NCBI GenBank assembly: GCA_024137785.1
Contig: JAHRHZ010000069.1
Location: 22,218,750-22,282,749, forward strand
DNA: 64,000 bases
Source of the DNA: Ginglymostoma cirratum
Taxonomy: Eukaryota
Direction: 5' to 3'
Part shown: positions 2,569 through 62,821 of the stretch, one piece after another
Position numbering within the stretch: the first letter of the stretch is position 1
How the letters are laid out: every line of letters begins with the position of its first letter
Program-made: the position numbers and the translations under genes
Notes under the pieces: generated by a model
Told to the model about the DNA's origin: nothing
The model's input: the letters and a program-made list of their open reading frames with translations, nothing else
The model's database searches: none

Positions 2569-2682
2569 GAGATAGTAGGAACTGCAGATGCTGGAGAAGG
2601 GTCTAGGCCCGAAACGTCACTTTCCTGCTCCTCTGGTGTTGCTTGGTCTGCTGTGTTCATCCAGCTCTACACCTTGTTATCT
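2569..2682. mobile_element. Short Penelope-terminus insertion (family A) with 17-bp TSD
   Basis: Direct repeat CCAAGTTTTGTGCTATG at 2552-2568 and 2683-2699; body contains aagggtctaggcccgaaacgtc...ctgctgtgttcatccagctctacaccttgttatct. Confidence 0.85.
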
Positions 2683-5444
2683 CCAAGTTTTGTGCTATGT
2701 TGGAATTTCATTTTAGGAATTGGATGCAGAAATCTAGCTGTTTTTCTTCCAGTACAGTTCTGCACATTGTCAGAGAAACTGTCCTTCAAACAGGATGTTT
2801 TGCCAACGTCCTGCCTGGCTGCTTGGTACTTTGAACGTTAAATGCTCTAAGACAGTTTAAGAAGAGCCGGTAGCATGGTTAACATCTTCCATCCATCACT
2901 GCCAGAAATAGCTTTGCAGATATGAATCTCATTGCTGCTTTATGGGATTTTGCTATCCTCAAAATGGCTGCTGCTTGTTTGATACACATGTACAGCTTCC
3001 TAAGATTTTATTTGAGAATTATAAGGCATTATATAAAACAATCTGTTTCCATCTGATTTAGGTACCTTGTGTTGCTAGCATAACGTCTTCAATGACAATT
3101 TCTGCATTAGCCATGTTTAGTGCACATGCATCCTGTCTGAGGGAAAAGGCTATTATCCCAATGTGGCGTATTGATTGCTCTCATGATTCAAAAAAAATTC
3201 CTCAATTATTTAGATCCACTCTGGTCACTGCTACAAACAAAAACATGGAAAAGCTTGTCAGAATCTCAAAGTAGTGCTAGAAATATTAATTACGTGATTG
3301 ATTTATTTTGAAATTGACACCTGTCTGCTAAAGGGCTCCATCGTTAATGAACAATTGCATGAGACTTGGTTACATGCGGGAAAAGAATGTTTCACAGGAC
3401 TGCATCAAGGAGGAAACTGTGAAATACTTTGCATCCCACCATTGCAGTATTTGCCTAACCTCCCTCAAAACTAATTTGTCATGTTCAGTGAAGCTGCTAC
3501 ACCCCAGGTCTTCGGAGTGTCAAAAGGGTAGCATTTAGCTCCTCAGAGAGAAACCTTTCACTTTTTTTTCCTTTTCGTTTGAGGTGACAGGCAAATTGTT
3601 CCAGACCTTGTTGCATTAAAGTGGCTTGCATTTATTTTAATTAACGTGTTTGGTCATGACTCTGGGTCAGGTAGGACTTGGCTCAGAGGTAGGCACTACC
3701 ACTATGCCAGTAGAGCCCCTCTAAACATGACTTGCATTACGGTCAATCAAGAAGATTTGAGGGGGATCTTGTTGAGTTGTTTAAGATAATTAAACGGTTT
3801 GTTCAGGGAAATAGAGAGGAATTATTTTCTATGTTGAAGGAGGCCCAGAACAAGGGGGCAGAGCTGTGCAGTGAGAACTAGACTCATGTAATTTTACCAC
3901 ATTTGCTTTCTTCTGTTCTAGGGAGAATATCTCAATAAAATTACATCAGACTGGAATAAGACCACAGCCTTAAGTAACTCAAAATCTTGCTAAATAACTT
4001 ATTGTGCAGAAAGTGTCATGTTGCCTCTAGTTTTTTCCCCACCCTCAAGGAAATCAATTATAGAAAAAACAAGTTGGCTTCTTAAAGTTAGTGCTGTGTA
4101 GATTGTCATTCCATCCAGCATTTCTCATTGTGATTTATCAAACCCCACAGTACTTTATTAGCACCATGCCTTACCGAATGGACTGTTGTATCACATAAGG
4201 GTCAAATTTTGCACTGAAGAAACTTTTTTCAATGTCACTATGTTTTCCTTAGTTCTATTTGTTTCTTACTGTGTGATAATGTTTGCAGTTTCTGTCCTGA
4301 TAACGCGGCCCCTTGACTGTACTGGCCACTGAACCATTGTTTATTATTCCCACAAAATGTAGGCCACGTGGTCTTAAAATATGGTAACATGCCCATCAGG
4401 AAAGTGCTGTCCACTGCTTCACACAAAATGCAACCTTCCGTCCTGTCCTCTCTGCTGCTACTTTCGGTGCAGCAAGCTGAATAGCTTGAACCCATCCAAT
4501 CTGTACCTGGCAGCAGCAAGTTGCACTGGTATCCATTTAGCCGCAGCGCAGCCGATGCAATTAGTGGAAAGAGCCGTACTTGGGACATTCAACATTGCAG
4601 CTAGTTGTTAGCCAGTAATCTTTTCACCACCTCAGAGTTGGTAGATAATTTCCAATGTTTATAAGAAAGTAAGGAGAGAATTTTACTATAATTTGTTGAA
4701 AAATGAACTTCATACATATAATTGCGCAAGGTATAGCAAAAATATTAGAGACTGGTTCCAACTGTATTGATTTTAGACATATTAATGTCAGGGGGAGCAT
4801 CTTGCATGGATTTGCCTGCTCTGGATGGAAGACTTTGTTTTGCCATTCCAATTATTGTGAAATTCAAATTTGCATTTTACTTCTATTTAAATGTGCATTA
4901 TTTAGCTGGCAGTCTAGACATGACCTCCATTTGTACCATGCGGATGGTTATTGCCTTCGTGATCTTGTTTTAGCAGATGTTGAATTTGACCTCACTTGAT
5001 CTATGTTGTGCTATGTCAGAAAATGGTGGAGGTGGCTGAAAAATACAGTAAAAGCTGAGATTCTGGGGCAGACTAGAGAGTGACTGGAAATCATTTAACA
5101 CAGGAAAATGTGCTATTTACTGTTGTTTAAATTAAAAAAAATCTTTATTTTGAACAGATCGTACATAACTACAAAATAAATTGTCAATAGAATTCAATTA
5201 CAATTTTCTGTGAGATCAGTTTAACAAAACTTCATTTAACTCTTGTTTTTGTTTTCATAGTAATGAGGTTAAGTGCATCTACTCGCTTGAGGTCAATAAT
5301 TACTAGCCTCTGTGATAGGTGGCTCTTTTTAAAAACTGCACACTAAAACTCAAAGTAAAATGGGATGCCTGTCAGAAAGAGTGGGTAATCATCACTGATT
5401 CTGAAAGAGCACAAGCATTATTCAAAGCAAATATCAAGTTTGAG

Positions 5445-5620
5445 GAACAAGTGGTGGAGGCTGGTACAATTACAACATTTATAAGGTATTTGGATGGGTA
5501 TACATGAATAGGAAGGGTTCAGAGGGATGTGGGCCAAATGCTGGCAAATGAGATTAGATTAATTTAGGATATCTGGTCGGCATGGACCGAAGGGTCCGTT
5601 TCCGTGCTGTATTACTCTGT
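5445..5620 (+). mobile_element. CR1 LINE 3'-terminal fragment
   Basis: VVEAGTITTFIRYLDGY followed by a CR1-type 3'UTR (ggaccgaagggtccgtttccgtgctgta). Confidence 0.85.
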
Positions 5621-7861
5621 CTTTCAATGTATTTCAAAGTCATTATCCCCAGAATGAAATGTGATTTTAAATTTTAAAATAAGAGCATCAAACTCTTAAC
5701 AGATGACTGTCACACCTGATTTTACTAAATCTCAAGGTTATACAGTTTCTTTGTCAAATTGAATAAACTACCCTGCATTTGGCAGCAGCCATCAGAAATC
5801 TGAATGGGTTTAACAAGATTCAGTTATGTGGGAGGCTATGGCCAAGAGGACATCATATAGTTATATAAGACAGCAAACTGTACAAAAGGTGAATCTGGAA
5901 TATTATTCCATGTAAAAGCGTAATATTAAATTAGGAAGTATGCACAGCTTAAAATCGTAAATAGCAAACTTGACCTATGGCGGGAGCAGTATGAATTAGA
6001 CTTTCACGTAAAGTAGTGGAAAGCAAAATCTATCATTTATAGATTTTTCAACATTGGCAATTGCCATTGCTAATATGTATTTTATAATCTTGTTAGAAAA
6101 TTATTATAAATTGCACAGATCTCAGAAAGTTGCTATACTTTTAGGACAACTGGTGAAATCACAACATTTGATGCTGTAGTTTAAGATGTCTCCATCAGTC
6201 AGCCTGTTAGACAAACAGCCAGCTAGCTGGTCATTGAGTCAGTCAGTCAACTATGTATATAATAATAGCAATCAAAGTAGGCCTAAAATCTAGGCTGTGG
6301 ATGTAATTCTCAGGTGTCATGTTAGTGTACATAGTTGTTAATAAACTTCCAGATATCTGACTCATTAAGAACCTGACTCACCAGTTTATGTTAGATGGGC
6401 TTACATGTGAATAAAACACCAAAATGCATATTTATTCAGGTTTGATTTGGTGCAATTAAATACCTCACTTGATTTCAGAAAATAAATCCAATCTGTATCA
6501 GTACCATCAAAAACTCAGGTTAGTAGAATTGTGATTGACCCTTTTCCCAATAATTGAGTGCAGAATTCAGTTTCATATTTATGCCTTTGTATATAGATAA
6601 AATATTTATACTTTATATAAAACTTAATTGTTAGATATCTAATCAAAATTATGAAAAATGGATTAGCAATACGTCACGGTACCTTCAAATTGACTGCTTT
6701 TGCTTACTTGCTGCTGGAATGGAAGCAGTACTCCAGAGATTAGTTACTAATAAAATTTCTCTAGTTTGTGTCTTTCCAAATTGTAGAACATCACTCTTTA
6801 ACATTACCAGAATGTTTGCAGGCATTAAATAGGCCTAATGTTATTCCCCAATAGACATGTAAAATAATGACAAGTCCCTACAGAAAACCACAAGACTCTT
6901 TTGTTTGGTGAAGTCAGTCCTGCTGTGGAGTGGTGTTCTTCCAGAAAGAAGTCAGATGTCTTAATTTCTAAAGTTAGTAACCAGCAGAGCCAGTCACATC
7001 AGGTTTCTTTCTCATGCTCTCCCAGGCAGAGTGCTGTTTTTTTTTTTTTTGGCAGATTTCCTGACATAAAAATGCAGGTGTTGTAATCTTCTGCCATTTC
7101 TTGTAATCACAGTTTTCATGCTGTGATCAACTTGATTATAAATTAGATACAAATTGATTATTCACCTTCGTTACACAGACTGCTATTTGGTCAAGGTACA
7201 ATCTAACTTGAAGCTGTTAGCTAGCCATCAATCACCATCATTCATCTCAAGTCAAGTTGCAGACTCTCAAATTGAAGGTAAATCGAGCAAGTATGTCCTT
7301 TTTTAATGACAGTGCATATTTTGTTCACTTCCATTTGAGCCTGCTCCAGTACCCAACAGGATCGTGGCTGATACAATCCTGACCCCTCCGATCTCTGATT
7401 AATATATCATCCCCTGTTAATCAAGAATCTACCTCCCACTACCATTACTTAAACTCCATACAATGAGCAAATCCATAACTACAAGAATGTAAAAGGAAAA
7501 TGATCAAATATTTAAATAAATTTTCTCAAATTCTATAATGTTAGTATAATTAGTGAAACAGCCACTGTAACCAGGTAAACTACTCTTGTGAAATGCTAAA
7601 AATAGGTGAAATGAATATTGCGATGTGCTTGTTCAAGTTATCACATTCTATTTCTTTTGGTTTTAGGATTTTGCACCAAAAAACTATTTTAATAATGGTA
7701 GTCCGAATTGTATTACTGAATTTGTAAAATGTAGACATAAAAGATTTGTTGCATTGAAAATGCCTCTGAAATATTTTGACCAATTTAAATAGAACCACAA
7801 ATGGTAAAGTGTGCAAACCATTCTTAATTTTTATAAAACCTGATCTCTGTTAGCAATGCCG

Positions 7862-8200
7862 ACAACAAACTTTCTTTTTATGGAGCAGCTCTAACATAGT
7901 AAAACGCGTGCTTTACAGTAGCATTATTAAAGTAAATATAACTCTAAGCCACATATGAAAACATTAGGATAGATGATTAAGTACTTGGTCAAACAGGTAC
8001 AATCTTAACGAGTGTCATAAAGAAGAAGACTGAATTAGAGGGAGTTTAGGACCTGGACAGACGAAGGCCTAACCACTAATGGTCGAGCAGTCGAAGACAG
8101 GGATATCTAAGAAACCAGACTTAGAGAAACTTGATAGGGCTGGGGAAGATTGCTGACAAATGGAGAGCTTTGAAAATGAGGATGAGAATTTTACAAGTTG
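7862..8200 (-). mobile_element. Old L2-like LINE 3' remnant
   Basis: Degenerate reverse complement of an L2-type tail (cf. 33700-34260 and 36638-36765); boundaries approximate. Confidence 0.5.
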
Positions 8201-8559
8201 TGGCTTTGAAACTGAAGATCCAGATCCTGGAATTTTTTTAAAGGATGCATTGACGTTCAGAGATTGGGCAAACTTGACTTTTCTTTAGAATGTTCTGGGT
8301 TGTTTTGTTTGAAGGGTTGAACCTTTGAGCCATGGTGATCACAGTCAGATTGCCACCCTGTCCCTTTTTTAACTTGACTCCGCCTGTAGCTCTGAGGGTT
8401 TTTTTTGCCTGAACATCAGAGTGTAGCCTCTTGAGAAATGCAGAGAGTATCTGATCAGGGGAGCAGTGCAGACTCAGCATTGGGAGCCAAACAATGTCTC
8501 CTTTTTAGAGCATTAACTGTCATATTCCACGCTTGAATGTCTAAATAAAGTTTGTCAAA

Positions 8560-9065
8560 CTATGGAGAAAAGGGAAGTGTCTAAACCATATGGGTGAAGG
8601 ACTTGGTTGGCAGGTGATTAGTGAGGGGATATGGTGGCAGATAATTGGGTGAAGAGGTAGGTTGGCAGGAGTTTAGTAAGCAGATTGTAGTTGGGTAGAT
8701 AGGGTGGCAGGTAAGTGGGTGAGTGAGGGGGTAGGTCTAGGTCGGTAGGTCAAGTGCTAGGGTGGGTTCGGTAAGTGTTGCGTAGGGTTTATCAGGTGTC
8801 AGCTAATCAGATATCCAAGGGTGATCAGTGTGAGTGTCTGGGTGGTGGGTCAGTTTTATAGTTACCTAGGAGCTTGAACAGATTCTAATTCCTCTAAAGA
8901 TTTTCTGGGTAACTAATCAAATTATTAAGTCTGTACCATCTGACTCAACTAAGATTTGGGGACTTTGTTTAGAGGTTTCCAATCTCTGTGTAATTGCCCA
9001 TCAGAATTTAAACTCCTCAGGTAATAAGTACATAGTCAGTGGGTTGGGACATCTGAGTGTATCTA
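8560..9065. repeat. Unclassified repeat with G/T-rich low-complexity arm; related copy inverted near 49.6-50.5 kb
   Basis: aattgcccatcagaatttaaactcctcagg (about 8993-9021) is near the reverse complement of cctgagaagattaaactttgttgggcaatt (about 49686-49715). Confidence 0.55.
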
Positions 9066-12000
9066 AAGCACTCCTGTCAGTACACGTGGTCTCTGGCTAT
9101 CCAGGAATTGGCAGATCTGGGTCTCAATGTTGTTTGTTTTTAAAATGTTGTGGATTGCCTTATCTACTGTGGTGCAGTTTGTCATAGCTCTCAAAATGCG
9201 AGCTGAGGTTTTAGAGCAAGTTTTCAGACTTGATTGAGAAGCCTTCTCAATGCAGTGGAAGCTTTTGTCTTTCAGCTTTGTCAAGGAATACCAGGAACAA
9301 TCGGATACTTGTGATAATGTCAAGTTAACACAATATGGCAGAGGCAGTGCTCTATTGAGTCCCCCCGTTATTTGCTCATAAAGTTTCCCATCTACTTTAA
9401 ATATAATTAAATAATGAACAGAAACTTAAATATTGTTTGTAGAATACGAGACCAAAAAGGTCTCCTATCTCCCCATTGTTCTAGTATTATGACTCTGACT
9501 GACCGAGACAATCTTGTCTGATCTCGTTCCCCTTCTCTTTCACTGTGGTCATGTGCAGCTATTGTAGTGTTTATCATATAACAAAAGCAATTTGATATCT
9601 GGTAAATGATCACATGATATAGATATGTGTGACTGACCTGAACGCGTTTATGTAAGTTTGTATCATTGTTGCATTTGCAGATGGTTTATGGAAACCACAT
9701 GAAATGCCATCTGTCAGGCGTGTGTCCAGTTGTAAGCTTATCATCCTTCTACATGAGGAAAGATGTGCCTGTCTTTTCAGGTCCATTGAACGTCACAGTG
9801 CAACAATTGGTCAAATGTGAGGCTGCCTTTCTCAAGAGTGACCTGCGCATTCCAGGGCATCAAGCTTGACTACATTAGGTGTACATGGAGAAAAGCCATG
9901 TTCAGCTTTTTGCTTTCCTGCTGTTATGTTTACCAAGAGCATTTGGGATTATTTCTTTTGTCTGATGTCTGAGTTTCTCTCCTTGAGACATAAAGAAGTA
10001 AGTCTTAGTTTGAAAACTGAATATCCCATAATGTTTGTTTCTTTGGTAGCTCATCTGCCCATACGCGATCCACCACAGACGCACATGGCATGCAATTAAA
10101 TGCTCAATATTGTGTGTTTTTGGACTGTACCTTTTGAAATATATATGTCACTTCTCTCCTCCATCACTGCAGGATGAATGCTTTAATTGTACATATCAAA
10201 TCTCAGTGCCTTTTTTTCATCGATATTGAAGCTACAGTCGGTATTCACTCAATCAGTAGAGGTAGAAATGATCATATTCTTCTTTTTATCCTTTTGTTAT
10301 TCCTCAGAAAAGTGATATACCCTTAAAAACAGCAATACTGCTTGACCTGCCATTGCAGCTCTGTGCCTGTTCAGGGATGCTTTATCTGTGTGACTGTGCA
10401 CCTTTCTTTCCTTCCTTCCCTCCCTTTAATCAACAGCCTAATCCCATTTCCATGGAAACAAGTAATTAGTGTCAGATGTGAGAGTCTAGCTAATGTGCTT
10501 AACACTGTACCTGACCTCCAAACAATTTGAAATGATGAGCAAAAGTCAATTCTGTGATGGAAAACGTAAAGTCAAGATTATTTTTTTTTTATAGATCTAA
10601 AATTGATGCACAAAATGAATCCTTGTACTTTAATAAAAATAATCACAACTATTGCATTTTTGGACAGATAAAGCAGAACATCCAATCTTGTATGAGTGTG
10701 GCTTGTGTCACCCACCAGAAGAGTGTTCAGCCTCTTGTGACAAAGCTTGCTTAGGTCACGAGGACATCAGGCTGAAGTGTAGGAAGTTCAGTCACCTAAA
10801 AAAAAAATCCCAAAGGGTAACACAATACTGCAAACACCATTATTTTAGACTCCCCCACCCTATAAATAATCTCTGTTGTATTGTGGCATTGTTTTCAGAC
10901 CAGACAGGACTATACCTTTAAGATAACATGACAACGTGGCATTCCAGTTGAAAGGTAACTGCTTCACCTAGAGTCATTCTTTTTGAGTAATGGAGTCAGT
11001 GTAGTGTCTTCTGTTGGTTAGAAATGTGTATGTAATATGCAGAAACAAAAGAAAGCACTAAATCCAGACTCTGTAATCCTGTGATATTATAGTCTTGTAA
11101 ATAGTCAGTGTTGTAAACAAACTTAAGATAGCTGAATCAATAAGAATCTGTGATATAGCGGGCTAACAAACAGAAAGCCATATAAGGCTGTCGTTGGTGA
11201 CAGTGAATGACTCTGAGTGCCAGTCGTGATAGCTATTTAATGGCAGTAAGAAGTCATTGAAGACTGAAAAATTGGCAGACGTGTTGTGCAATGTCTATTT
11301 TTCCTAACAGTCACACATCCATCTCTGAGTTCACAGCTTAAGTTAAAGCTACAAAACTAAAGGTTACAGATTTGTTCTGGAGCACTGTTGAGTACTTGAC
11401 CCTTCTTTTGAAGTTGTGCTGTTTCCAAGTGGCCTTGGACAACTTTGGAATTTTTTTTTTTGAATGGTTGATAAAAGGATTGTTCTTAGCTTAAAAGAAA
11501 AGCATTCCTAGAATTTAAAGACAGAAAAGAACAGTTTTCTATACTTACAAGGCTTGCCTTTCACAGTCATTGTTTGGTTCTGCTATTTTACCATCATGTC
11601 ACATTATCAATAGTCAGGTCAAGTAATGCACCAAATTGGAGGTGGGTGTTGACAAAGGTGTGGGATGTGATTGCACCGAAGCTAATCTAGCTGAAAGGCC
11701 AATGGAACTGGTCATTGCCTCTGCACCCATCAAATCCTTCAGAAAAGTCCTTTTGGACAGATCTAAGGAATACACCATTGACATTGAGCTAGAAGAAACT
11801 GGCAACGTCAAGAAAATTGTACCAGACCAGCTGCATCAGATGGTTTTTAATTCTGAAACAGCTATTTGTAGCTATCAACAGGTTAAGCAGAACATCCATC
11901 TGATTAATTTCACCAAGTTCCCTTTTGTGAGACAAGTTTATGGATTCCACTAACACAATGGTTGTTGACTACCATATTCATTTTGTTCAGTGTGTCTCCA

Positions 12001-14849
12001 CAAATTCTGTCTGTTAGGGCACTTTTCAAGGAAATGTGTAGGAAACGGGATGATCAACATATTACCTTCACCTCTTCATTGCTTTCTGTTGAATGGATTG
12101 CAGAATGCACTGGTCATACTGAAAAATCCGCTGTCATTAGATGTAAAATGACTTGCCAAGATATATTCAATATATTCATAATGTTCCTCCAGGCATTTAC
12201 CCTCAACAGCCACTGTTTCATATTTGGGACATTGATCCACACAGTCCTTCCCGACCACATCGTCACCACCCAACCGTGTTGCACTGTTGGGAAGAAGGGA
12301 GAAAATGGTACGAGCATCATCAACAAGCACGCGGGCAGTTAATCCAAATTGAACCAGAACAAGTGGATGAATTCAATGTCACGTCCAGCCTAGGTCACAG
12401 TATATTGTATTGAGCGCTGGTTAAATCCTATGAAAAAATAAACAAGAATTCCAAACCTTTGCCAGACCTGCTGAGTTTTTCCAGCAATTTGTTTTTGATT
12501 TTCAGCATCCGCAGTCTGTTTTTAAAATATCCAAAAGCCGTATCAGCCACTCATCACGCATGCTGGTGATCCGGATACTTAAAGTTCCACACGAGACAAC
12601 AATCACACATTTACGACAAACGATAGCGTGCTGTAGAGCGACGCTACATGCCAAATCGAGATAATTGTTTAATGACCAAATCTGTTCACATTATGTCCAT
12701 TAAGATGTTATTTGATTGTATAGACACAATTAGTCTACATGCATCTGTGCATGTGTTATTGAAAAAGGGTTCCCGTTCTTAAAGGGAACAGAAGATATTG
12801 TGTTATGGCATAGATTCCAGACCAGCCAGACCTTTGAAGGAAGTTATTTGATGTATAAAGTCTGATGTTCCATAATAAAGATACTCACTTCACCTGTAGT
12901 CGCTCTGTGTGCAATAGCCTCCATGTAACGTCTTTAGGTAGTTATTTGTGTTTGCAATACCAGTAAATACAGAACTTAATCTCTGACTGTGATAGTGTTG
13001 TCTTATAAATAGTGTTGTAAATAAATTTAACTATATTTGATCAGCTAGTACCCTTTTGTGATATATGTTACATAGGCTAATATATAAGAAAATTACAAAG
13101 TTCATCAGTGTCTAGAACTGTCAACAATATAAGCACAAAATTGCAGACTTGTGATTTAGAGAAAAGTCCCTTTGTGGCCAGTTTGGATTAAATGGAGGCA
13201 CATGTTAGTTTTGCTCCATTTTGTTTATAAAAATTGATTTGACATAGCAGAAAATACTGAAAACTGTAATTGCAGAAGGCATCTCAGGATATAGAACAGT
13301 TGCTGTACAGTCCATCTCCAAAAGCAAAACTAGATAATTGATATCAGGTGTGTTTACCTTTCATTTGAAAGCTTTGCAATTCCAAAAGTATTAGAGGAAG
13401 AACTAACCACTAACATTAACATGATGTGGATGCAGACAGGTTTGCTTCATTATGAATGGGGCTTCAGAAATGCCTGCAAGATTGTTTGAAGTGGCTAAGT
13501 ATCAGCTGAAGTGGAGTGTGAAATTGACAATTTCAGCTCAACTGCAAATTTAACTCCACCTTTCTTTAGAAGTCATGCTATCAGTGATTAGCTGTGTCAT
13601 AGACTGGCATGTCCTGACATACTTGCAGGGCATGCACTTTACCAATGGCAGTCCTGCTTTCACAACAGCAAAGTAAATAAGATGACAGCACTGCCTTCTG
13701 CGAGTCTGCACAACACTGGAAGAGACGGTTTCTGTAGCTGTGCTGGCAACACAAACATTCAGAACCCGTGTTGACAGTGATTCAGTCTGTCTCAATGAAT
13801 GAGCAAAGTGATTTCGCACTCCCAGGAATGGACCCACCCCCATTCATTAAGGTGCAACTTTAAAAGAAGTGCGCACACCGAATTGTGTTTCTGTTGTTCT
13901 GTTTGCTGTCGACGAAACTGTTCAATATAAATCATGTCTTTACAACAAATCAGGTCTCCATTGTTGTAGGATTTTTTTTTTTTGCAATCATTCTGTGATA
14001 TGCTCAAATAAATTTTGACAACTGTGTTGTTAACCACAACTTTGAACTTTGTAAGGGAAACTTTGAATTCCAGTTATGTTAGCCTTCTCTTTGAATAAAT
14101 CTCTGCAAATTAACTAACAGATTAGATAATCCAGCAGAGTTGACTTTTAATTATTACCACAATTTACTTTCTTCTACTTCTGGTTCTCCCCACCGAACCT
14201 TTATTTGATCTTTTAAACACCACACTGATCTAATTATTTATTTTAAGCATTGATACTAGTTTACAGATATTTCTAGTGCGTTTTTTGGGGGATACGGGGA
14301 GGGAAGTTGTGTGCACAAGATCTTCTAAGCACTGACTTTTGGAAATAGTTGTTTGGGTTTTTTGTACAACTTTTCAATTTTTAAAAAATGTTTATCTTTT
14401 TTTAAGAAGTCAGAATATCATATTTAATTTTATATTTTTGGTTCTTCTGTTTTATATTAACCTCATATCCTGTAATCAGCTAGGGCCCAAACATTTTATA
14501 AATTGTAACAAGTCTATCTTAAACGGAAGACCAGAAATCCAGCTCACTACCTGTCATGGCAGCTGCTTTCTATTGCAGATAGTTTTATAACTGAACAGGT
14601 TTTCCATGGAAATAAACAACCTGATTCTCCTACCCTCATTGCAAAATTTCTTCTCTTTTCTTTCTGTAGACACGACATAGAAATGTTTTGTGTGCCATTT
14701 CAGAATACTATTGTTAATTGCTTTACTGTTTCAAGATTAAAAGATTGGATGCCCCAGTGAGCTGCTACAAAAGTATGCTTTGGTTTCATGTGAAAATGTA
14801 ATCTATTCCTGTAAAGTTAAGGAATAGAAATGGAAATAATGTTAAGACT

Positions 14850-15580
14850 TATTCCTTCTTAGGTTGTGACCGTTGGCAAGGTCACCCTTTGTTGCCCATC
14901 CCTAATTGCACTTGAGAAAGTGGCAGGGAGCTGCCTTCTTGAGGTGCTGCTACCCATGTTGTGTAGCTACACCTACCATCCTGTTAGGAAGGAAGTTGCA
15001 GACATTTGACTCTGAACGTAAAGGAGTGGTGATACAGTTCCAAGTCAAGATAATGTGTGGTTTAGAGGAGCTTGCAAGGTGATGGAGGTTGTGGGTTTGA
15101 AAAAGAGCTGCTAAAGGAGGCTTGGGAAATTGCTGCAGTCTATTCTGTAGATGGTACACATGCCGATCACTGCATCTGTGGTAGAGTGAGTTTTTTTTAT
15201 GGTATTGAATGGGAAGCCTTTCAAGCAGCTGGTTTGTCCTAGACAATGATAAACTTGGAGCAGCACTCATCCAGGCAAAGGTACAGTATTACATCACACT
15301 CCTAACTGCGCTTTGCGGGTCAGGAAGTGAGTTACTTATAGGATTCACAGGATCTGATGTGCTTCAGTTTCTGGTCAATAGTTACCCCCTGTTGATAGTG
15401 GAGATTTAGCACTTAAAATGCTGTTGACTGTCAAGGGAAGATGGTTAGATTCTCTTTGTGGAGCTGATCATTGCCTGACACTTGTGTGGTGTGAATGTTA
15501 CTTGCCATTCATCAGCGCAAGCCTGGATGTTGTACGGGTTTTGCTGCATATGGGCTCAGACTGTCTCAGTATTACAAGTG
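14850..15580 (-). mobile_element. LINE 3' end whose tail is shared with the SINE family at 29.6 and 61 kb
   Basis: tttgttgcccatccctaattgc tail plus a decayed ORF2 C-terminus; clade not determined. Confidence 0.7.
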
Positions 15581-16171
15581 ACTAAGCAATGGATTTAAGA
15601 TTGACCTGCCCTACCACCTTCTGAGTAACATCTCAGATTGCCCAAATATTAACATGAGATGATTTTTAACAATCTCAAATGACAGGGTTAAAAGTAATTT
15701 TTGCAGTCAAAATGGAGACTGTATTTCACAACAAAGATTGAATCCTGGATCAGTGCATTTGTGAAGGAAGTATTGTTTCATTTAATTTCAGGGATTGAAG
15801 TATGACAGATAACATGAGACTGAGAACAACAGGGAAATGACCAACACATAGGATTTTTTAAAGTGAACAAAACTAAAGATAAGGTTGTTGTACAGGTAAG
15901 ATAGAGGGGTAAGATGTGAAGGACTGGGAAGGATCTTGCCCAATTTAATTGAGCAAAACAATAGAAAACATAAGGAAGGATCAGGAATGGAAAATCTTTA
16001 AATAAGAGGTAGGTAGATTAGCTTCCCAGTTCACTTGAAATGTCACTTCCTCAAATCAAGAAAATTGGCTATATGTTTCCCCTGCAATTCTACCATCAGG
16101 AGCTAGACAAAGGAAAGGCATATCTAAGTCCAATAAATGTTAAAAAAAAAAACCCTACTGACAAGTATTAA

Positions 16172-55859
<39,688 letters not shown>

Positions 55860-56825
55860 TGAATCTATTCCCTAACTATTTTTGATCTGTTTCTGAGACC
55901 TTTCCATAAAGTTATATGTTGTGTAGCTCATTTCCCTGCATCTACAAGGATACGTCTGTAAATTTTGTATGAGTATAAAGTTTACCTGATCAGTAATCTT
56001 TGTTACTTTGGCAGAAATTTTGTGTAGCTGTATACTTGGAAAAATCGATCTCCAGTACTTCATGTTTTGTGTTTGTGCCACTTCAGAAAATGGCAAAGAG
56101 ATCATTCACTTTACGGCTGCTGTTGGTGAAATTTCTTCATAAAATTATAGCTTTTGCTGCATGCATTTCTTGGTAGGCCTGTCATAATGATTGCAGTGAG
56201 TTTAATTTTCTGATTAACTTTTGCCAGAGTGTATATGTGAGTGAAATAATTGAATTTGCCCAGTTTGTAGACTCGTTTGGGTGTTGGAGAGCAGTGGGTG
56301 GGAAATGGTGGAAACTTTGTATAGACGAGATGAGATAAATCTTTAAAGCTTGCACATAATGAGTGTGATTCATGCCTAAGGTTTAATTGGTGCAAAAACA
56401 CAAATTTAATCCAATGACCAGAGATTGATTGGTAAGTTGTTACAGCAGCGGTTAGAATCAGAATACTTTTTGTTCTTGGTATTGAAATAAATTGAACTAT
56501 TCAAGGAAGGTCATTAATGAAAATTAATATGTGAGCTATAAGTGAGGTCTGATGATAATGAATGAATATTTCACATATTTGTATAGCATTTCCCTGTCTA
56601 TTTTTGAAAATAACTGAACTAACGTTCTTTTTAAAAGCAGTGAATTATTACAGAAATGTTGCTATTGCCACGTCTGAAGAGCACGTCTGAAATACATATA
56701 TGTATACAAAACATACTCATTCATAAAATAACAGTTCTCGCATCTTGATCCTGTCAGCTTTTACTGTCAGTGCAATGCTTTCTAACAAACCATTTATTTT
56801 GCCTCACCAATCATTTGCACAGACC

Positions 56826-57039
56826 AGAAAATAAAAACATGCTGGAGATCAGAGGGTCAGTTAGCATCCATGGATTAAAAAGTAAGCTGACGTTTGAGTC
56901 TACATGACTCTTCTTCAGCTCAAGAGTTATCTAGACTCGAAACGTTAGCTTGCGCTCTCCATGGATGATGCCTGACCTCCTGTGATCTCCAGCTTTGAGT
57001 TTCCAGTACAGATTCCAGCATCTGCAGTAATTTGCTTGT
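56826..57039. mobile_element. Palindromic Penelope-terminus insertion (family C) with 13-bp TSD
   Basis: ATTTGCaCAGACC at 56813-56825 and ATTTGCgCAGACC at 57040-57052; inverted arms gctggagatca...catccatgga / tccatggatg...tgatctccagc. Confidence 0.82.
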
Positions 57040-58019
57040 ATTTGCGCAGACCTATTCTGTCAAAATTCCAATTTCTTCTCAGTCAGATTGTACCAAAAGG
57101 GAAATTCTCAGATATCCAGCCAACTGTCCAACCATTTCTCCTACATGACATCTAGATTAGGTAAAAATTATTCTGATTCAGAATGGAAGAATTATAGACG
57201 ATAAACCATTTCATTGCATCCTTTAATTTTCCAGCGATGCCCTCTGTCTGCTTGCCTGCGCTCACAGTACATTCCACCAGATCCATTAACTGACTTGACC
57301 TCGGGTATAGTTTGTTCAGTTAAGAGAGAACAGCCTACAGTACTTAGAGTCCACAACTTGGCTTATCTGCAGTCTTCAATGTGGAGATGAATTTTGTGGA
57401 AACGATGCAGAACTTTTTTTTTCACCCCCACTTGATTTGGATATATTTAATTTCTACTTGATTGCAGCCATTAAAATAAACACTTAACCAGTTTGCTATC
57501 AGTAACAAATTGCTTGGTTGAAGAGGTCAGGTTTTGTGATGAAAGCAAACCTAATGCCATAATTTTGTTTAGATTTAGCAAATAGCCATTGTTGTGGTGG
57601 ATCTAAGTAGCTGAAAGCATTTTTGCTTTTGTTGGAGGATGGAATAATGATTCTGTTCAAAGAATTACTGTTATGAATGGTAAAGATCTTTGTGTGATGT
57701 TATAGTTGAGGTTATAAGCAATACAGAGTTAGTTAGGCTCCCATATAATTGCAAAAATGAGGTAATGGATATTATGTGCAACCAAAAAGTTCATTCTCCA
57801 GAAATTTTACTGTTTCTTTTTAGCTATGCTATTGCGTGAAAACTAAACTCTCATTCTGAAAACATTCCTTTTCTTGTATCACTCAAACATTCTCTTCTTT
57901 TTTTCCAGTACATAAATCTGGCCGTATATTTCCTTTTCACATCCAGATTTCAAATGTTCTTTGAATCAAATCACCAAGGATTTACTAGTTCAGGAATCTG
58001 TGACATTAGGTCTCCTTCT

Positions 58020-58215
58020 GCTATCGTCTAGATAATGATTGCTGAGCCGTAAGTGGACAGACTCAGTTTAATGGCTCATCCAAAAGGCAGCCACAGTGAC
58101 ACGACAGTATTTTCTCAAGTGTCAGCCTGGATTGCATTTGCCTCTGAAGTGGGTTTGAACCCACAACCTTCTGACTTAGAGCCAAGAATGCTACCACAGA
58201 ACCGTAGCTGATGCA
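58020..58215 (-). mobile_element. 5' (tRNA-derived) part of a Deu-SINE
   Basis: gtgggtttgaacccacaaccttctgacttagag...gctaccacaga, a reverse tRNA-like head. Confidence 0.65.
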
Positions 58216-58320
58216 AGTTATTAAATCAGTTAAGTTTTTTTTTTTAAACTGTTCAATTATAATCTAAAGGTTTTCTGTATACTTCCAAATAAATCTTACA
58301 GACAGCCTCCCACCTAATCT

Positions 58321-58457
58321 AAAGAAGGGTCACTGGACCTGCAACATGAACTCTCCTTTGTCCCCACAGATGCTGCCAGAGCTGCTGAGATTTTCCAGCA
58401 ATTTCTGCTTTTGTTCCTGATTTCCAGCATCAGCAGTTCTTCAGGGGGTTTCTATTT
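58321..58457 (+). mobile_element. Penelope-terminus insertion (family B-like) with 14-bp TSD
   Basis: CTCCCACcTAATCT at 58307-58320 and CTCCCACtTAATCT at 58458-58471. Confidence 0.8.
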
Positions 58458-59334
58458 CTCCCACTTAATCTTCCCCTTTCCTAAAGGGCTCCATTTCTGC
58501 AAAAGAGCGTCCATTCAGGCCTCAATCTTATCCGAGCAGACAGCATCCAGCTATTCTGTCCTGAATTTCACACTTCTGCCATGAAAGCAAAACAACTCTC
58601 ACTATTGCATGGTTCCTTAGAACATCTAGTTTGTGCTGTTACTTCTTCAAGCTTTGCTATCTGGGCCTAATTAAGACCCTCTCCCACCCTCTAAACCTGC
58701 CTGTTCTTGAACCTGATTCACACAGTGCACTTTGTACTAATCAAACTTTTTTTTTTACATTTTCTATGATATTGCAAATTGAACAAAACTCTTTCTAAAC
58801 ATTCTATGCAATCCTGCAGGCTGCATTTAAGGAAGAAAAAGAAAATAAGTGGATTAACATTGTCCAATAATGATATTGGGAATGAATTTTTTTCTATTCA
58901 AATTCTAAGTGTTGTTTGCACTGTATGTCAAAGCAACTTGCCTCAAACAAAATACATTTGGTGATGATAGCTAACACTTTCTTTCATAACTTGCGTTAGT
59001 ATCCCTGGGACGCTCTGTATTTTACGTGGTTCCCTAAAAATGTGATCATATTTTGCAGGAAGTCTCCTTTCTAGACTAATTTGAAAACCAGTGCTCTAGA
59101 GTGTAATTTATGTTCGTTTGCTGTACAGTGCAGATTGAAAAACTGCTTTTTTCATTTTCTTCCTCATTAACGTATTTGTGTGTGCAGTCCACAGGATGCT
59201 ATATAGATTTTATCAAATATTTCATGCTATTTTGTATTAGCAAACTAACTCAAATGTTCAAATACTTTTTCGCATTTGACACATTATTAATAATCAGTAA
59301 TTCACTTCATATTGATGTCTAGCAAAAATGATAT

Positions 59335-60240
59335 ATTCACCTTTATTACAAAAGGATTGGGAATATAAGATTACAGAAACCTAACACAACTGATAAGAGT
59401 TTTGGTGAGACCACACCTGGAGTACTCTGTACAGTTGTGATCGCACTACTCAAGGGAAGATTTGCTTGGTTTGTGCTTTCTGATGGAGATGTTACTTTGC
59501 AGAGTCAGGAGGTGAATTACTTGCTACAGACTTCGTAACCTGTTCTTGTAGTCACAGAATTGATATCACTGCTCTAGTTCAGTTATGGTCAAACATTCTG
59601 AATCATCAGCAAACATGTCCATTTCTGACAGTATGATGGATCGAAGATCATTGATGAAGCAGCTGAAGATATTGGTATCTACAACACTACTAGGACCTGC
59701 AGCAAAGTCCTGGGACTGAGTTGACTGTTTTGGCTAGCGGAGATCAATCATACTTTGTGCTAGATAAGACCCCAACCAGTGGAGAGTTTGCCCCAATCCC
59801 CATTAACTCCAGTTTTGCACAATGGAAGTATCACCCCAAATGATGAAGGGTGTCCTCAATGTATGGGCACCTGGACCTGTTGCAGTTAGTTTGGTGAAGA
59901 TCAATTCAAGTAGGATTTTCCCACATACCAGGCCTGAGGCAGGAGTTATCATCTGTGTTCTTAAGGACTTGCTGCTGAATCACTCTCTCGGAGATGGACA
60001 TTTGAAATCCCTCGCCAAAAGTACATTTTGCACCCTTGCCACCACCACTACATTGTCCGATAGGTGATCAGCATGGAGGGGTACTGATTCATCAGCCAAA
60101 GAGATGGGGAGTTTGTAGGCCTGCCTACAACCATGATGGTGACCAGCTGGAGGTTTCCTTGCTCATGTTTGACTTACGGCCATGGGATCCATAGCAAATG
60201 TTGAAGCAGCCCTGGCCAGTGTCATCCCAGCTGTCCACCC
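59335..60240. mobile_element. Mosaic of LINE fragments (CR1 on + at about 59335-59470; minus-strand pieces of the 14850-type LINE)
   Basis: LVRPHLEYSVQL motif; gtcaggaggtgaattac and aagatcattgatgaagcagctgaagat. Confidence 0.65.
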
Positions 60241-60773
60241 CTCTGTTTTTTAATGTATCTTTTAAGTGAACATCCTAACACGTTCAACGCCCACGTCTAG
60301 ATAACACTAGAAAAGTGATGAATGAGAAAATCAAGCTATTTGAAGCCTCCGTAGTCATTTCTCCTTAAGATTGTGACATCCTGTATTCTTTGGCATAAGT
60401 GCTTGTGACTCTTTTTTACTTAAGTGGATAGGTCCATATCCCCCAGTCTGAGTAGTTGCTGTATTTTCTGTTCTTGTTTTTTAAAGCTTTCTTGTATGTG
60501 ATATATCTCCCAATTGCACGCGAGTGAGTGTAAATGAGAACATTTACAAAGCAGGAGAACTTCAGAGAGGAAAGGAATATAGTTTAATACTAAAATTTCG
60601 CACACATGCACATAATAATACTCCTTTTTTCCTGTCGGTCTTCTCTTTAATTGATTAGTGTAGCTATTACTAAACTTTTTGAGAGAGAGTTTGTGGCGTT
60701 GTATACACAGTACTGCAAGTCACCACTCATGACTGAATACCAAATTGTAACTGAAACTGCAGCAATTATTATA

Positions 60774-61430
60774 GGAGGAGGCAACGCCTCAGTGGTATTA
60801 TCGCTGCACTATTAATCCAGACACAGCTAATATACTGGGGAAGTGGGTTAATTTGAATGCAGTAAAAAATAAAAATGGAATTAAGAGTTTAATGATGACC
60901 ACAAGCGCCTCTGGTTCACTCATGTCCTTCAGGGAACGAAACTGCTATCTTTATCTGGTCTGGCCTGCATGTGACCTCAGACCCACAGAAATCTCATTAA
61001 ATCTTAACTCTTATGGGGGAGGGAATGGCCTCGTGGTATTATCACTGGACTGTTAATCCAGAGACCCAGATAACATTTTGGGGACCCGGGTTCGAATCCT
61101 GCCACGGTAGATGGTGAAAGTTGAATTCAGTAAACGTCTGGAATTAAGAATCTAATGATGACTGTTAATCCATTGTCGATTGTCGGAAAATCCCAGCTGG
61201 TTTACTCATGTTTTTTAGGGAAGGAAACTGCAATCCTTACCTGGTCTGGCCGACCTGTGACTCCAAACCAAAAGCAATGTGGTTGACTCTTAACTGCCCT
61301 CTGGGCAATTAGGGATGGGCCACAAGTGCTGCCTAGCCAGGGATGCCCTCAACCCGTGAATGAATAAAGAAACACAAAGCTTTCTGAGAATAAATGCTGG
61401 CCTAGTGACATCGTGAAGGAATAAAAGAAA
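60774..61430 (+). mobile_element. tRNA-derived SINE with a second copy of the same family (61015-61372) nested inside
   Basis: Two heads (gtggtattatc...taatccaga), B box GGTTCGAATCC in the inner copy, outer tail aataaatgctggcctag resumes at about 61389. Confidence 0.82.
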
Positions 61431-61944
61431 ATGATGTCAAAAGAGCATTAAGTAGATTTCTTTGGGAAATTTTCAGTTTGCATCATTGTACTTTTGAATG
61501 CAGTCTGACTGTTGCTTGCAGCTCATCCGTCCCTTTCTCCTTATTCACGTGTATCAAATTTGTCAGGAGGAGAATTATGGTCAGCTGTTCTGCATAGCAA
61601 ACTTAGAACAAATCCTCAAGTAATATCTATGCAATGAAGCTGATAATAGTAAAAGCTCTTGGAATCCAACGATAATATTGGCCCCAAGGTGGGGGCATTA
61701 CCTGCAGCAGCTACCAACTTCCCAATAGCAATGCCTTTCAATAGAAATGCTGCCCTCTGTTTGGCCAGAAGCTCTTGGTAGGCAGGACATCTTTTTTGGG
61801 GTTCTTGATTCTGGGAAAGGTCATCCACTGTACAGTTAGATGCCAATGTACTTCATTCAGCAGGCCTTCACAGAAGAGGAAACGCAAGGCCTTTGCTGAT
61901 TGTCCAGCTAGTGGTCAAGGCAAAGTCACCTCCATTTAAATCTT

Positions 61945-62385
61945 ATTTATTCTTTCAGGATGTGGGTGCTGCCAATAAGACCAGCATTTGTTGACCATCC
62001 CTAATTGTCCTTAAACTGACTTGAGTTGCTAGGCCATTTCAAAGGTCACTTGAGAGTCAACCCCGTTCCTACGGGGCTGGAGTCACATAGACAAGAGTGA
62101 GTAAGTTTCTAATGTAGAAGGTTCAATAACTAAAGGATATATTTTCGAAATAATTGGCCAGGAGTCGGGATGGAAGTGAAGAGATTTTTTGTAACATGGC
62201 AAGTCGATATGGTCTGGAAAGAGTGGTACAAGATTCAACAGTAATGTAGAAGGCACTGTGTGCTTGAAGAAGAAAACTTTACAGTGCCAAGGGGAAAGAG
62301 CAGGGAGTGGAACTGTTAGGATAACTCTTTTAAAATACTGCACAATGTGCAAAAAGGCCTTTTATTGTGCAGTGTGATTCTGTGA
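61945..62385. mobile_element. SINE tail (-) joined to a CR1 3' fragment (+)
   Basis: ccagcatttgttgaccatccctaattg followed by gaagggttcaataactaaagga...ggccttttattgtgcagtgtgattctgtga. Confidence 0.6.
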
Positions 62386-62706
62386 TCTTCATTATATTTT
62401 TATATTATTAACAAATTGGTCAATGATCTTATAAATTATCTGAAGCCAATGAACTATAGAAGTAGTTAATTGTATATGAAGAGCTTTGAGATGTCTCATG
62501 ATGTGTTTATCAGTACAAATCTTTTCCTTCTCTCATTGCTGATGTTACAGTAATTAGACAACGCTTAGAACCTTGAATCAACTGGAAGACTATTTTTGCC
62601 ATTCTACCAGTGCATTCAGGTCTCACAAGCAACAAGGGTCATTGAGCTACTTAATCTGTAGTTAAATATATTACGTGGTGTGGCACTTCATTACCAGTGA
62701 ATCCTT

Positions 62707-62821
62707 TCAGAACCCTCTTCCCCTCCCCCATTTCTGATGAAGGGTTTCGGCCCGAAACGTCAAGTTTTCCTGCTCCTATGATGCTGCTTGACCTGCTGTG
62801 TTCATCCAGCCCCATGCTTGT
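62707..62821 (+). mobile_element. Short Penelope-terminus insertion (family A)
   Basis: Near-perfect reverse complement of 47440-47557; possible 7-bp TSD AATCCTT. Confidence 0.85.
62734..62761 (+). ncRNA. Minimal hammerhead ribozyme-like core (PLE-associated)
   Basis: CTGATGA-A-GGGT(TTCG)GCCC-GAAA-CGTC, with predicted GUC cleavage triplet. Confidence 0.7.

Follow-up and report, generated by a model that had tools for sequence, protein, structure and literature searches.

Pile-up of short Penelope-like element copies at the first base of a hammerhead ribozyme suggests a transcription start site in Ginglymostoma cirratum

Introduction

Penelope-like elements (PLEs) of metazoans carry minimal hammerhead ribozymes, and relatives of these motifs occur in short insertions within a 64,000-nucleotide (nt) stretch of the Ginglymostoma cirratum genome (assembly GCA_024137785.1, contig JAHRHZ010000069.1, positions 22,218,750 to 22,282,749, forward strand), here called the window. 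The described ribozymes are of type I, with an extra nucleotide inserted between position 9 and position 10.1, a G10.1-C11.1 pair, a palindromic helix III (15.2-16.2), a short helix I and low activity in vitro; the same work also reported single motifs dispersed in the thousands, which it ascribed to truncated PLEs, and pairs on opposite strands (PMC4209133). The G. cirratum motifs resemble them in all these respects of structure and dispersal, whereas helix II measures 4 to 5 bp here and 7 to 8 bp in the schistosome families of that study, the accessible text of which includes no cartilaginous fish and does not map copy ends to a promoter.

Endonuclease-bearing (EN+) PLEs are known to insert with a head-to-head inverted copy, a one-sided tail of 30 to 40 bp and a target-site duplication (TSD), and to leave solo pseudo-long terminal repeats (pLTRs) and internal deletions at microhomologies (PMC3846280, PMC8557442). 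The same layout is found in G. cirratum, but here, unlike in those descriptions, an insertion often consists of just two pLTR ends flanked by TSDs of 12 to 17 bp, at the density given below. These two reports explain solo pLTRs by recombination or deletion and trace inversions to an antisense template used in self-priming. For the anole element Poseidon PAc, in vitro work located two internal start sites of the reverse transcriptase (RT) 3′ of the hammerhead, which define the tail; both target strands were extended, product length was set by the template 5′ end, and uncleaved RNA was the main substrate (PMC11167929). The copies described here are similar in these features, although they belong to another clade, the protein having a CX4CxxC linker of the Neptune/Nematis type; the accessible text on PAc gives neither a start site nor an account of short genomic copies. 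Finally, non-LTR retrozymes are likewise noncoding, hammerhead bearing and related to PLE pLTRs (bioRxiv 10.64898/2026.07.22.740005), but they form head-to-tail tandem repeats, in contrast to the single or head-to-head, TSD-flanked copies of G. cirratum.

Prior work thus already covers the elements and the ribozyme with its additional nucleotide after A9, as well as the inverted copy with a tail on one side. What we add is a pile-up of 5′ ends at the A that opens helix I (the helix I A), behind a TATA-like box and often with an extra G, which constitutes a testable mechanistic signal. A search at the level of titles and abstracts, outside subscription journals, Repbase/Dfam notes and supplements, found no publication that ties short PLE copies to a start site or run-off or that reports the G.

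Results

The insertions in the window had been assigned to three sequence families by a sequence-only reading, and a profile search upheld these families, A, B and C. The 4.36-Gb assembly is rich in gaps, and the genome was sampled with 140 tiles (1,148,764 non-N bases), 40 of them blind and 100 taken near gap-free tiles, near the window or at least 20 kb from earlier matches; this sample is not strictly random, and the first 40 blind tiles are 55% N. It contained 267 clusters with a terminal arm, or one per 4.3 kb, including 212 with one terminal arm and 46 with a head-to-head pair. The hammerhead motif is present far beyond chance, because 180 kb of blind tiles yielded 14 core-plus-stem matches while each of five Markov shuffles yielded none. 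Genome-wide, exact matches of 20 to 24 letters numbered 27,297 for the young members of family A and 17,997 for family B.

The analysis of 5′ ends started from 319 scored arms; 38 touch a gap or tile edge and were removed, leaving 281 usable. Among the 186 arms reaching the ribozyme 5′ edge, 94 stop within 3 nt of the helix I A. The truncation rate within this span is 0.072 per nt, 15 times that at 14 to 93 nt upstream (0.0048) and 16 times that around the cleavage site (0.0044). In abutting pairs, 43 of 58 arms end at the helix I A, and in a replicate from separate flank DNA (322,598 bases) the figure was 22 of 41. Only 6 of 81 single arms continue into upstream DNA common to another copy, which reads as inverted-arm remnants, and therefore unmodelled subfamily sequence does not explain the peak. 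The main peak lies 31 to 34 nt upstream of the cleavage site, so that these copies include the half removed by cleavage; arms ending near the cleavage site itself number 6 of 271, and 0 of 69 in the replicate set.

A TATA-like box, a hexamer or heptamer, starts 29 to 31 nt before the helix I A in each of families A, B and C (at −31, −29 and −31), and in all three this A stands in the context pyrimidine-C-A-N-T. The 4-bp helix I of family B, family C and young family A corresponds exactly to the first four bases of a transcript starting at the helix I A.

The base preceding the helix I A is a C in the template, and exact matches with another base at this position lacked upstream element sequence in 29/30 and 20/20 inspected copies. 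This base was G in 61 of 100 young family A copies (the first 100 of 3,045 non-C matches) and in 52 of 100 family B copies (the first 100 of 5,565), against a G background of 26%. Two control steps in family A gave lower counts: G preceded 19 of 100 copies at the C-A step of the cleavage site (1,074 non-C matches; Fisher P = 2 × 10−9 versus young A) and 17 of 100 at a C-A step 25 nt upstream (324 non-C matches; P = 2 × 10−10). Once the share explicable by an inverted arm was removed, G still accounted for 43 of 82 copies (P = 3 × 10−7). None of 20 inspected G copies had upstream element sequence, some fillers repeated the 5′ end, and at locus L328 a single G stands between the TSD and the element. 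The family C count (46/100) was set aside as evidence because head-to-head joining at the palindromic helix I strand gives the same G. An untemplated G at the 5′ ends of full-length L1 and SVA copies has been read as a copy of the cap (PMC4859970).

At the opposite side, two zones of 3′ ends, separated by about 35 nt, correspond to copies with and without the tail, and exactly one tail is present in 35 of 44 head-to-head pairs. The layout of a one-sided tail with an inverted copy is that of the EN+ PLEs (PMC8557442, PMC3846280), and two internal RT start sites account for it in vitro (PMC11167929). Inverted junctions and fillers vary among otherwise near-identical copies, and fillers and microhomologies are frequent at junctions. 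Of 140 single arms searched for TSDs, 46 had a repeat; many of the arms are old or cut by gaps, and the search served as a source of examples only. Families A to C also keep a GATGCTG motif, matched by its complement within the tail, 15 to 110 nt downstream of the cleavage site; the two could form a stem-loop spanning the two RT start zones.

The assignment of the motif to the minimal type I hammerheads gained support, since helix I and stem II differ between families while their pairing is kept. The core is conserved above its surroundings, as the earlier reading implied: 15 of 15 positions are identical in A, B and C, versus 64 to 70% identity downstream and 58 to 61% upstream. The claim that stem II differs yet stays paired held as well, with the correction that family A has 4 bp including a G-U pair and not only GGG/CCC. 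In 17 copies, 88.8% of helix cells were paired, a level reached in none of 500 shuffles, and slid controls gave 9 to 47%. Covariation was uneven, because changes on both sides affected four of four helix I pairs and only one of four stem II pairs; these 17 copies were hand-picked and related, and family D (see below) is misaligned in stem II, so this set lends support and does not give a probability. Among 90 matches with an intact core, found by a scan requiring one extra base, the extra nucleotide after A9 was A in 84 and T in 6, the first stem II pair was G-C in 68 and G-T in 21, and the middle of helix III was CG in 52 and a CpG-decay form in 29. The extra nucleotide has a precedent among ribozymes described as having low in vitro activity (PMC4209133). 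Helix I is weak, with 4 bp in B, C and young A and 2 to 3 bp in older A. Nearest-neighbour folding gave −5.1, −16.3 and −16.7 kcal/mol for the active dimers of A, B and C, versus −28.8, −24.2 and −23.5 kcal/mol for competing folds, and these calculated energies would disfavour the active double hammerhead in all three families.

Outside the window, we encountered a fourth family of hammerheads, D. Its extra nucleotide is U, its stem II is longer, and its 5-bp helix I shows changes on both sides; it occurs at L198:1675-1708 (+) and 1251-1284 (−), L261:2563-2596, L209:4533-4566, L196:1051-1084 and L216:8416-8449. The upstream DNA of family D is purine rich with no TATA-like box at −30, and it therefore probably belongs to another PLE clade.

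The proposed Penelope origin of the insertions was supported, since the termini of A, B and C each adjoin an RT/GIY-YIG frame elsewhere in the genome. In family A, a 702-amino-acid frame (L147), its 5′ end cut by a gap, lies upstream of the terminus and encodes RT followed by an endonuclease (EN) of the GIY-YIG type at the C terminus; RVT_1 matched at residues 214 to 357 (E value of 2 × 10−6, 27.9 bits, just under the Pfam cut-off of 29.6) and GIY-YIG at 588 to 665 (E value of 5 × 10−5, 24.1 bits, cut-off of 22.6), while Pfam gave no domain match on two shorter partial frames. The family B terminus stands directly behind an endonuclease frame in L008, and the family C terminus behind RT-EN remnants in several of 30 loci, including L154, L159 and L169. 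This position directly behind RT/GIY-YIG frames indicates that the families are the ends of protein-coding EN+ PLEs and not separate non-autonomous families, as far as can be judged from sequence. All 105 scored genomic matches to the 3′ half of the family A frame are 95 to 100% identical, and family A is therefore recent. Its protein has its closest named homologues, among the 120 listed, in whale shark (94%), zebra shark (85 to 89%) and bamboo shark (77 to 79%), which points to a carpet-shark-like host, and no named Neptune reference was among them. A CCHH motif is present in the translation, and RT and EN are connected by a CX4CxxC linker; such a motif and a CX2-5CxxC linker are described for Neptune and Nematis (PMC8557442). 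Downstream of the ribozyme, A, B and C are 64 to 70% alike and are therefore relatives of one clade, while upstream they are unalignable (58 to 61% versus 53 to 57% when shuffled).

Several observations concern the longer copies. The family A leader (L008, L002) contains an upstream frame of about 39 codons that starts 3′ of the ribozyme and terminates two bases short of the ATG of the long open reading frame (ORF). In internally deleted young copies (47436-47829 in the window; L002, L005-L008, L011, L114), the first 20 to 160 nt of the ORF are joined to the 3′ untranslated region (UTR) at short microhomologies, with six different junctions among 8 loci; one junction is common to L002, L008 and L011, of which L008 and L011 are two arms of one locus. 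None of the sampled loci combines promoter, ribozyme, tail and ORF start without interruption, no full-length copy was found among them, and long copies are often interrupted by N. Fixed gaps of 400 N and 100 N (22950-23349 and many other loci) often lie at the centres of head-to-head pairs or inside long young copies, and therefore hairpin copies and full-length elements are under-assembled here.

All ten insertions listed for the window were found in place, and TSDs of 12 to 17 bp with no or one mismatch flank nine of them. The catalytic core is less well kept, for only four of the ten (24007, 42988, 47437 and 62707) retain an arm in which neither catalytic box nor stem II is damaged; five others are truncated or mutated in the core, and the insertion at 22877 cannot be judged owing to a 400-N gap in its middle. 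An inverted arm or inverted piece, absent from the earlier description, is present in six of the ten, and three older relatives at 12460, 21615 and 44849 had been overlooked. In total, the profile search resolved 17 arms in 14 clusters in the window, with no tandem array of elements.

The family A stub at 2569..2682 (+) is flanked by a 17-bp TSD (2552-2568 / 2683-2699) and joins a 30-nt inverted tail to a direct arm that runs from within the CUGANGA box to the inner stop, the one without tail. A second family A stub, 20293..20368 (−; 12-bp TSD, 20281-20292 / 20369-20380), is a single arm with a broken first box and sits within an old Penelope reading frame, namely, the RT region of the decayed element at 19982..22126 (+). 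This element, not in the earlier list, retains RT, linker, an EN remnant and a B-like terminus (tblastn identity of 36%, E value of 2 × 10−59; terminus profile match at 21615-22126). The unstranded family A head-to-head pair at 22877..23466 (13-bp TSD with one mismatch, 22864-22876 / 23467-23479) has its tail solely on the right arm, its centre being masked by the 400-N gap at 22950-23349. With its core intact, the family A stub at 24007..24126 (−; 15-bp TSD with one mismatch, 23992-24006 / 24127-24141) begins at the initiator-like site, after a short inverted piece made up of the tail end and ORF leader.

Two family B pairs, both unstranded, differ in their junctions. In the head-to-head pair at 36070..36288 (14-bp TSD with one mismatch, 36056-36069 / 36289-36302), both arms stop at the ribozyme 5′ edge and the tail is on the + arm, with G12 altered in one arm and stem II deleted in the other. 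In the pair at 42988..43199 (14-bp TSD, 42974-42987 / 43200-43213), the inverted arm ends in helix III and a 3-nt microhomology joins it to the direct arm, which has the tail and an intact core (43063-43092). The family C head-to-head pair at 56826..57039 (unstranded; 13-bp TSD with one mismatch, 56813-56825 / 57040-57052) has its tail on the + arm and one broken box per arm. An older family B single arm with tail, 58321..58457 (+; 14-bp TSD with one mismatch, 58307-58320 / 58458-58471), has both boxes mutated and starts just within the ribozyme 5′ edge. The young family A single arm at 62707..62821 (+; intact core at 62734-62761) starts 24 nt upstream of the initiator-like A and is the exception with respect to TSDs, its flanking repeat measuring only 7 bp.

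Family A is further represented by the young, internally deleted copy at 47436..47829 (−; 14-bp TSD, 47422-47435 / 47830-47843). The ORF leader and about the first 110 nt of the ORF (ATG at 47808) are followed by a microhomology jump (about 47698) into the 3′ UTR and then by the TATA-like box, the hammerhead and the inner stop. The box, TATTTAT at 47558..47564 (−), lies 31 nt upstream of the initiator-like A at 47533 and is predicted to act as the core promoter of the pLTR. At 47498..47533 (−) lies the minimal type I hammerhead, with the helix I 5′ strand running from that A, C3 at 47529 and predicted cleavage after C17 at 47502 (−).

Two further B-like remnants are an old terminus fragment without ribozyme at 12460..12531 (+) and an old, diverged terminus with a decayed core at 44849..44988 (−). 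An Rfam scan of the window gave no hammerhead family match; its MIR2118 match at 36074-36254 was rejected, as it reflects hairpin shape only and scores below gathering. Repeats with a tRNA-like head stand in partial tandem at 60774-61295, with an inverted relative at 29682-29979, and are likely a shark short interspersed element (SINE), presumably the family called HE1.

Of 24 RNA-seq runs listed, one was useful (X23); X24 gave 12 reads. X23 gave 35,500 and 14,608 reads, with both strands about equal. On L016:1300-1800, element termini were abundant in poly(A) RNA (depths of up to about 10,000 for a strand class, from one quarter of the run), and head-to-head joints near the initiator-like site occurred among the reads. 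Element termini in host transcripts are a likely source of double-stranded RNA.

Discussion

We consider it probable that the commonest class of short copies arose as run-off cDNA, the template being the element's own mRNA with its 5′ end capped and uncleaved. Transcription from the upstream pLTR would start at the helix I A and yield a capped mRNA. RT would prime internally, 60 to 110 nt past the ribozyme, as it does downstream of the anole ribozyme in vitro (PMC11167929), and on the 5′ pLTR copy it would exhaust its template after 95 to 145 nt and often add one further base by copying the cap. At a 12- to 17-nt staggered cut, one end may be extended or both, each from its own start site, and two cDNAs joined head to head by end-joining with microhomology or filler would give one-tailed hairpin copies. 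Priming on the 3′ pLTR copy would instead produce longer, randomly truncated insertions. Because the stubs lack the upstream TATA-like box, they would be dead on arrival, and because they hold the half that cleavage removes, their templates were mostly uncut and the ribozyme is a passenger in them; in vitro, the anole element likewise extends both strands and needs no ribozyme cleavage (PMC11167929).

On balance, we also lean towards the wider account in which transcription starts at the first base of the hammerhead, so that the ribozyme forms the first 35 to 40 nt of a capped mRNA that cleavage would decap, and strong-stop-like cDNAs from internal priming integrate singly or as head-to-head pairs, in tens of thousands. 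Several points weigh against a capped start. The TATA-like box and the initiator-like A are candidates judged by resemblance to the general consensus sequences. The peak is broad, with alignment ends accurate to about 3 nt; over the 4 to 20 nt inside the edge, truncation is already more frequent (0.014 to 0.020 per nt); and family C, represented by 6 arms in the sample, is too scarce for a test. Of 20 inspected G's, an inverted arm can account for about 6, and filler or microhomology for others. As many as 24,252 of the 27,297 exact young-family matches keep the templated C, and therefore many copies extend further upstream. The X23 reads show no start or end pile-up, and 82 to 85% of them continue into unrelated sequence, the reads coming mostly from copies within host transcripts; given this origin and the presence of both strands, RNA-seq does not decide the start site. 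In Drosophila Penelope, the pLTR start site is known and its promoter is TATA-less (PMC2377424), and an intron ends at the helix I 5′ end as a splice acceptor (PMC4209133). A TATA and initiator-like pair has been noted in one rotifer pLTR (PMC3846280).

Heavy 5′ truncation is typical of PLEs (PMC8557442), the truncation rate rises throughout the ribozyme region, and junction fillers and microhomologies are common, so ordinary truncation from the 3′ pLTR has to be weighed, with RT stalling or detaching after the ribozyme or at the upstream pyrimidine-rich tract and the G reflecting a terminal-transferase or repair preference. However, a structure-induced stall is expected at the 3′ side of stems and not past the last helix strand, neither control breakpoint has a G excess, and the TATA-like boxes lie at the right distance in A to C despite upstream DNA that is otherwise alike only as shuffled; we regard such stalling as unlikely. 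We see little room for the 5′ edge being a processing site made by splicing (a splice acceptor, like the one at helix I in Drosophila Penelope; PMC4209133) or by a nuclease: families B and C do have a pyrimidine tract followed by CAG at the edge, but family A has CAT without AG and yet the same peak and the strongest G signal, copies retain the A of the AG, and no shared upstream exon was seen before the breakpoints.

The sequence-only reading had also proposed non-autonomous or extremely truncated retroposons. Extreme truncation fits the copies, except that their short ends are not random and pile up at one site. Non-autonomous families of a SINE-, retrozyme- or miniature inverted-repeat transposable element-like kind, amplifying as their own units, might be suspected from the very high copy number, the recurring sizes, one junction type frequent among family B pairs (in a score-ranked, biased set) and the PLE-derived retrozymes already described (bioRxiv 10.64898/2026.07.22.740005). 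They found no support and seem to us improbable, since inverted junctions and fillers vary between near-identical copies, the internal deletions likewise have different junctions, stub sequence follows, subfamily by subfamily, that of the ORF-linked pLTR, and the stubs form no tandem arrays in the window and are devoid of the upstream box. Least credible of all is that ribozyme cleavage, or a circular RNA arising from it, sets the stub ends. Circular templates have been proposed (PMC4209133), in family A four or five arms begin at the cleavage site or next to it, which also weighs against a capped start, and the site has 1,074 non-C matches; a minor cleaved-template class alongside the main one is possible. 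The main peak, however, lies upstream of that site and includes the half lost on cleavage, and very few arms end near it.

The value of the present data lies in mechanism, namely in the origin of PLE inverted ends and solo termini and in the role of the hammerhead. If the pile-up marks a capped start, no separate non-autonomous family would be needed to explain the flood of tiny copies, the in vitro evidence that insertion needs no cleavage would gain genomic support, and the role of the ribozyme would shift toward control of the mRNA cap or release of unit-length RNA. The G. cirratum genome would then keep a base-exact record of the start site of a vertebrate PLE, and the in vivo template would be uncleaved, capped RNA.

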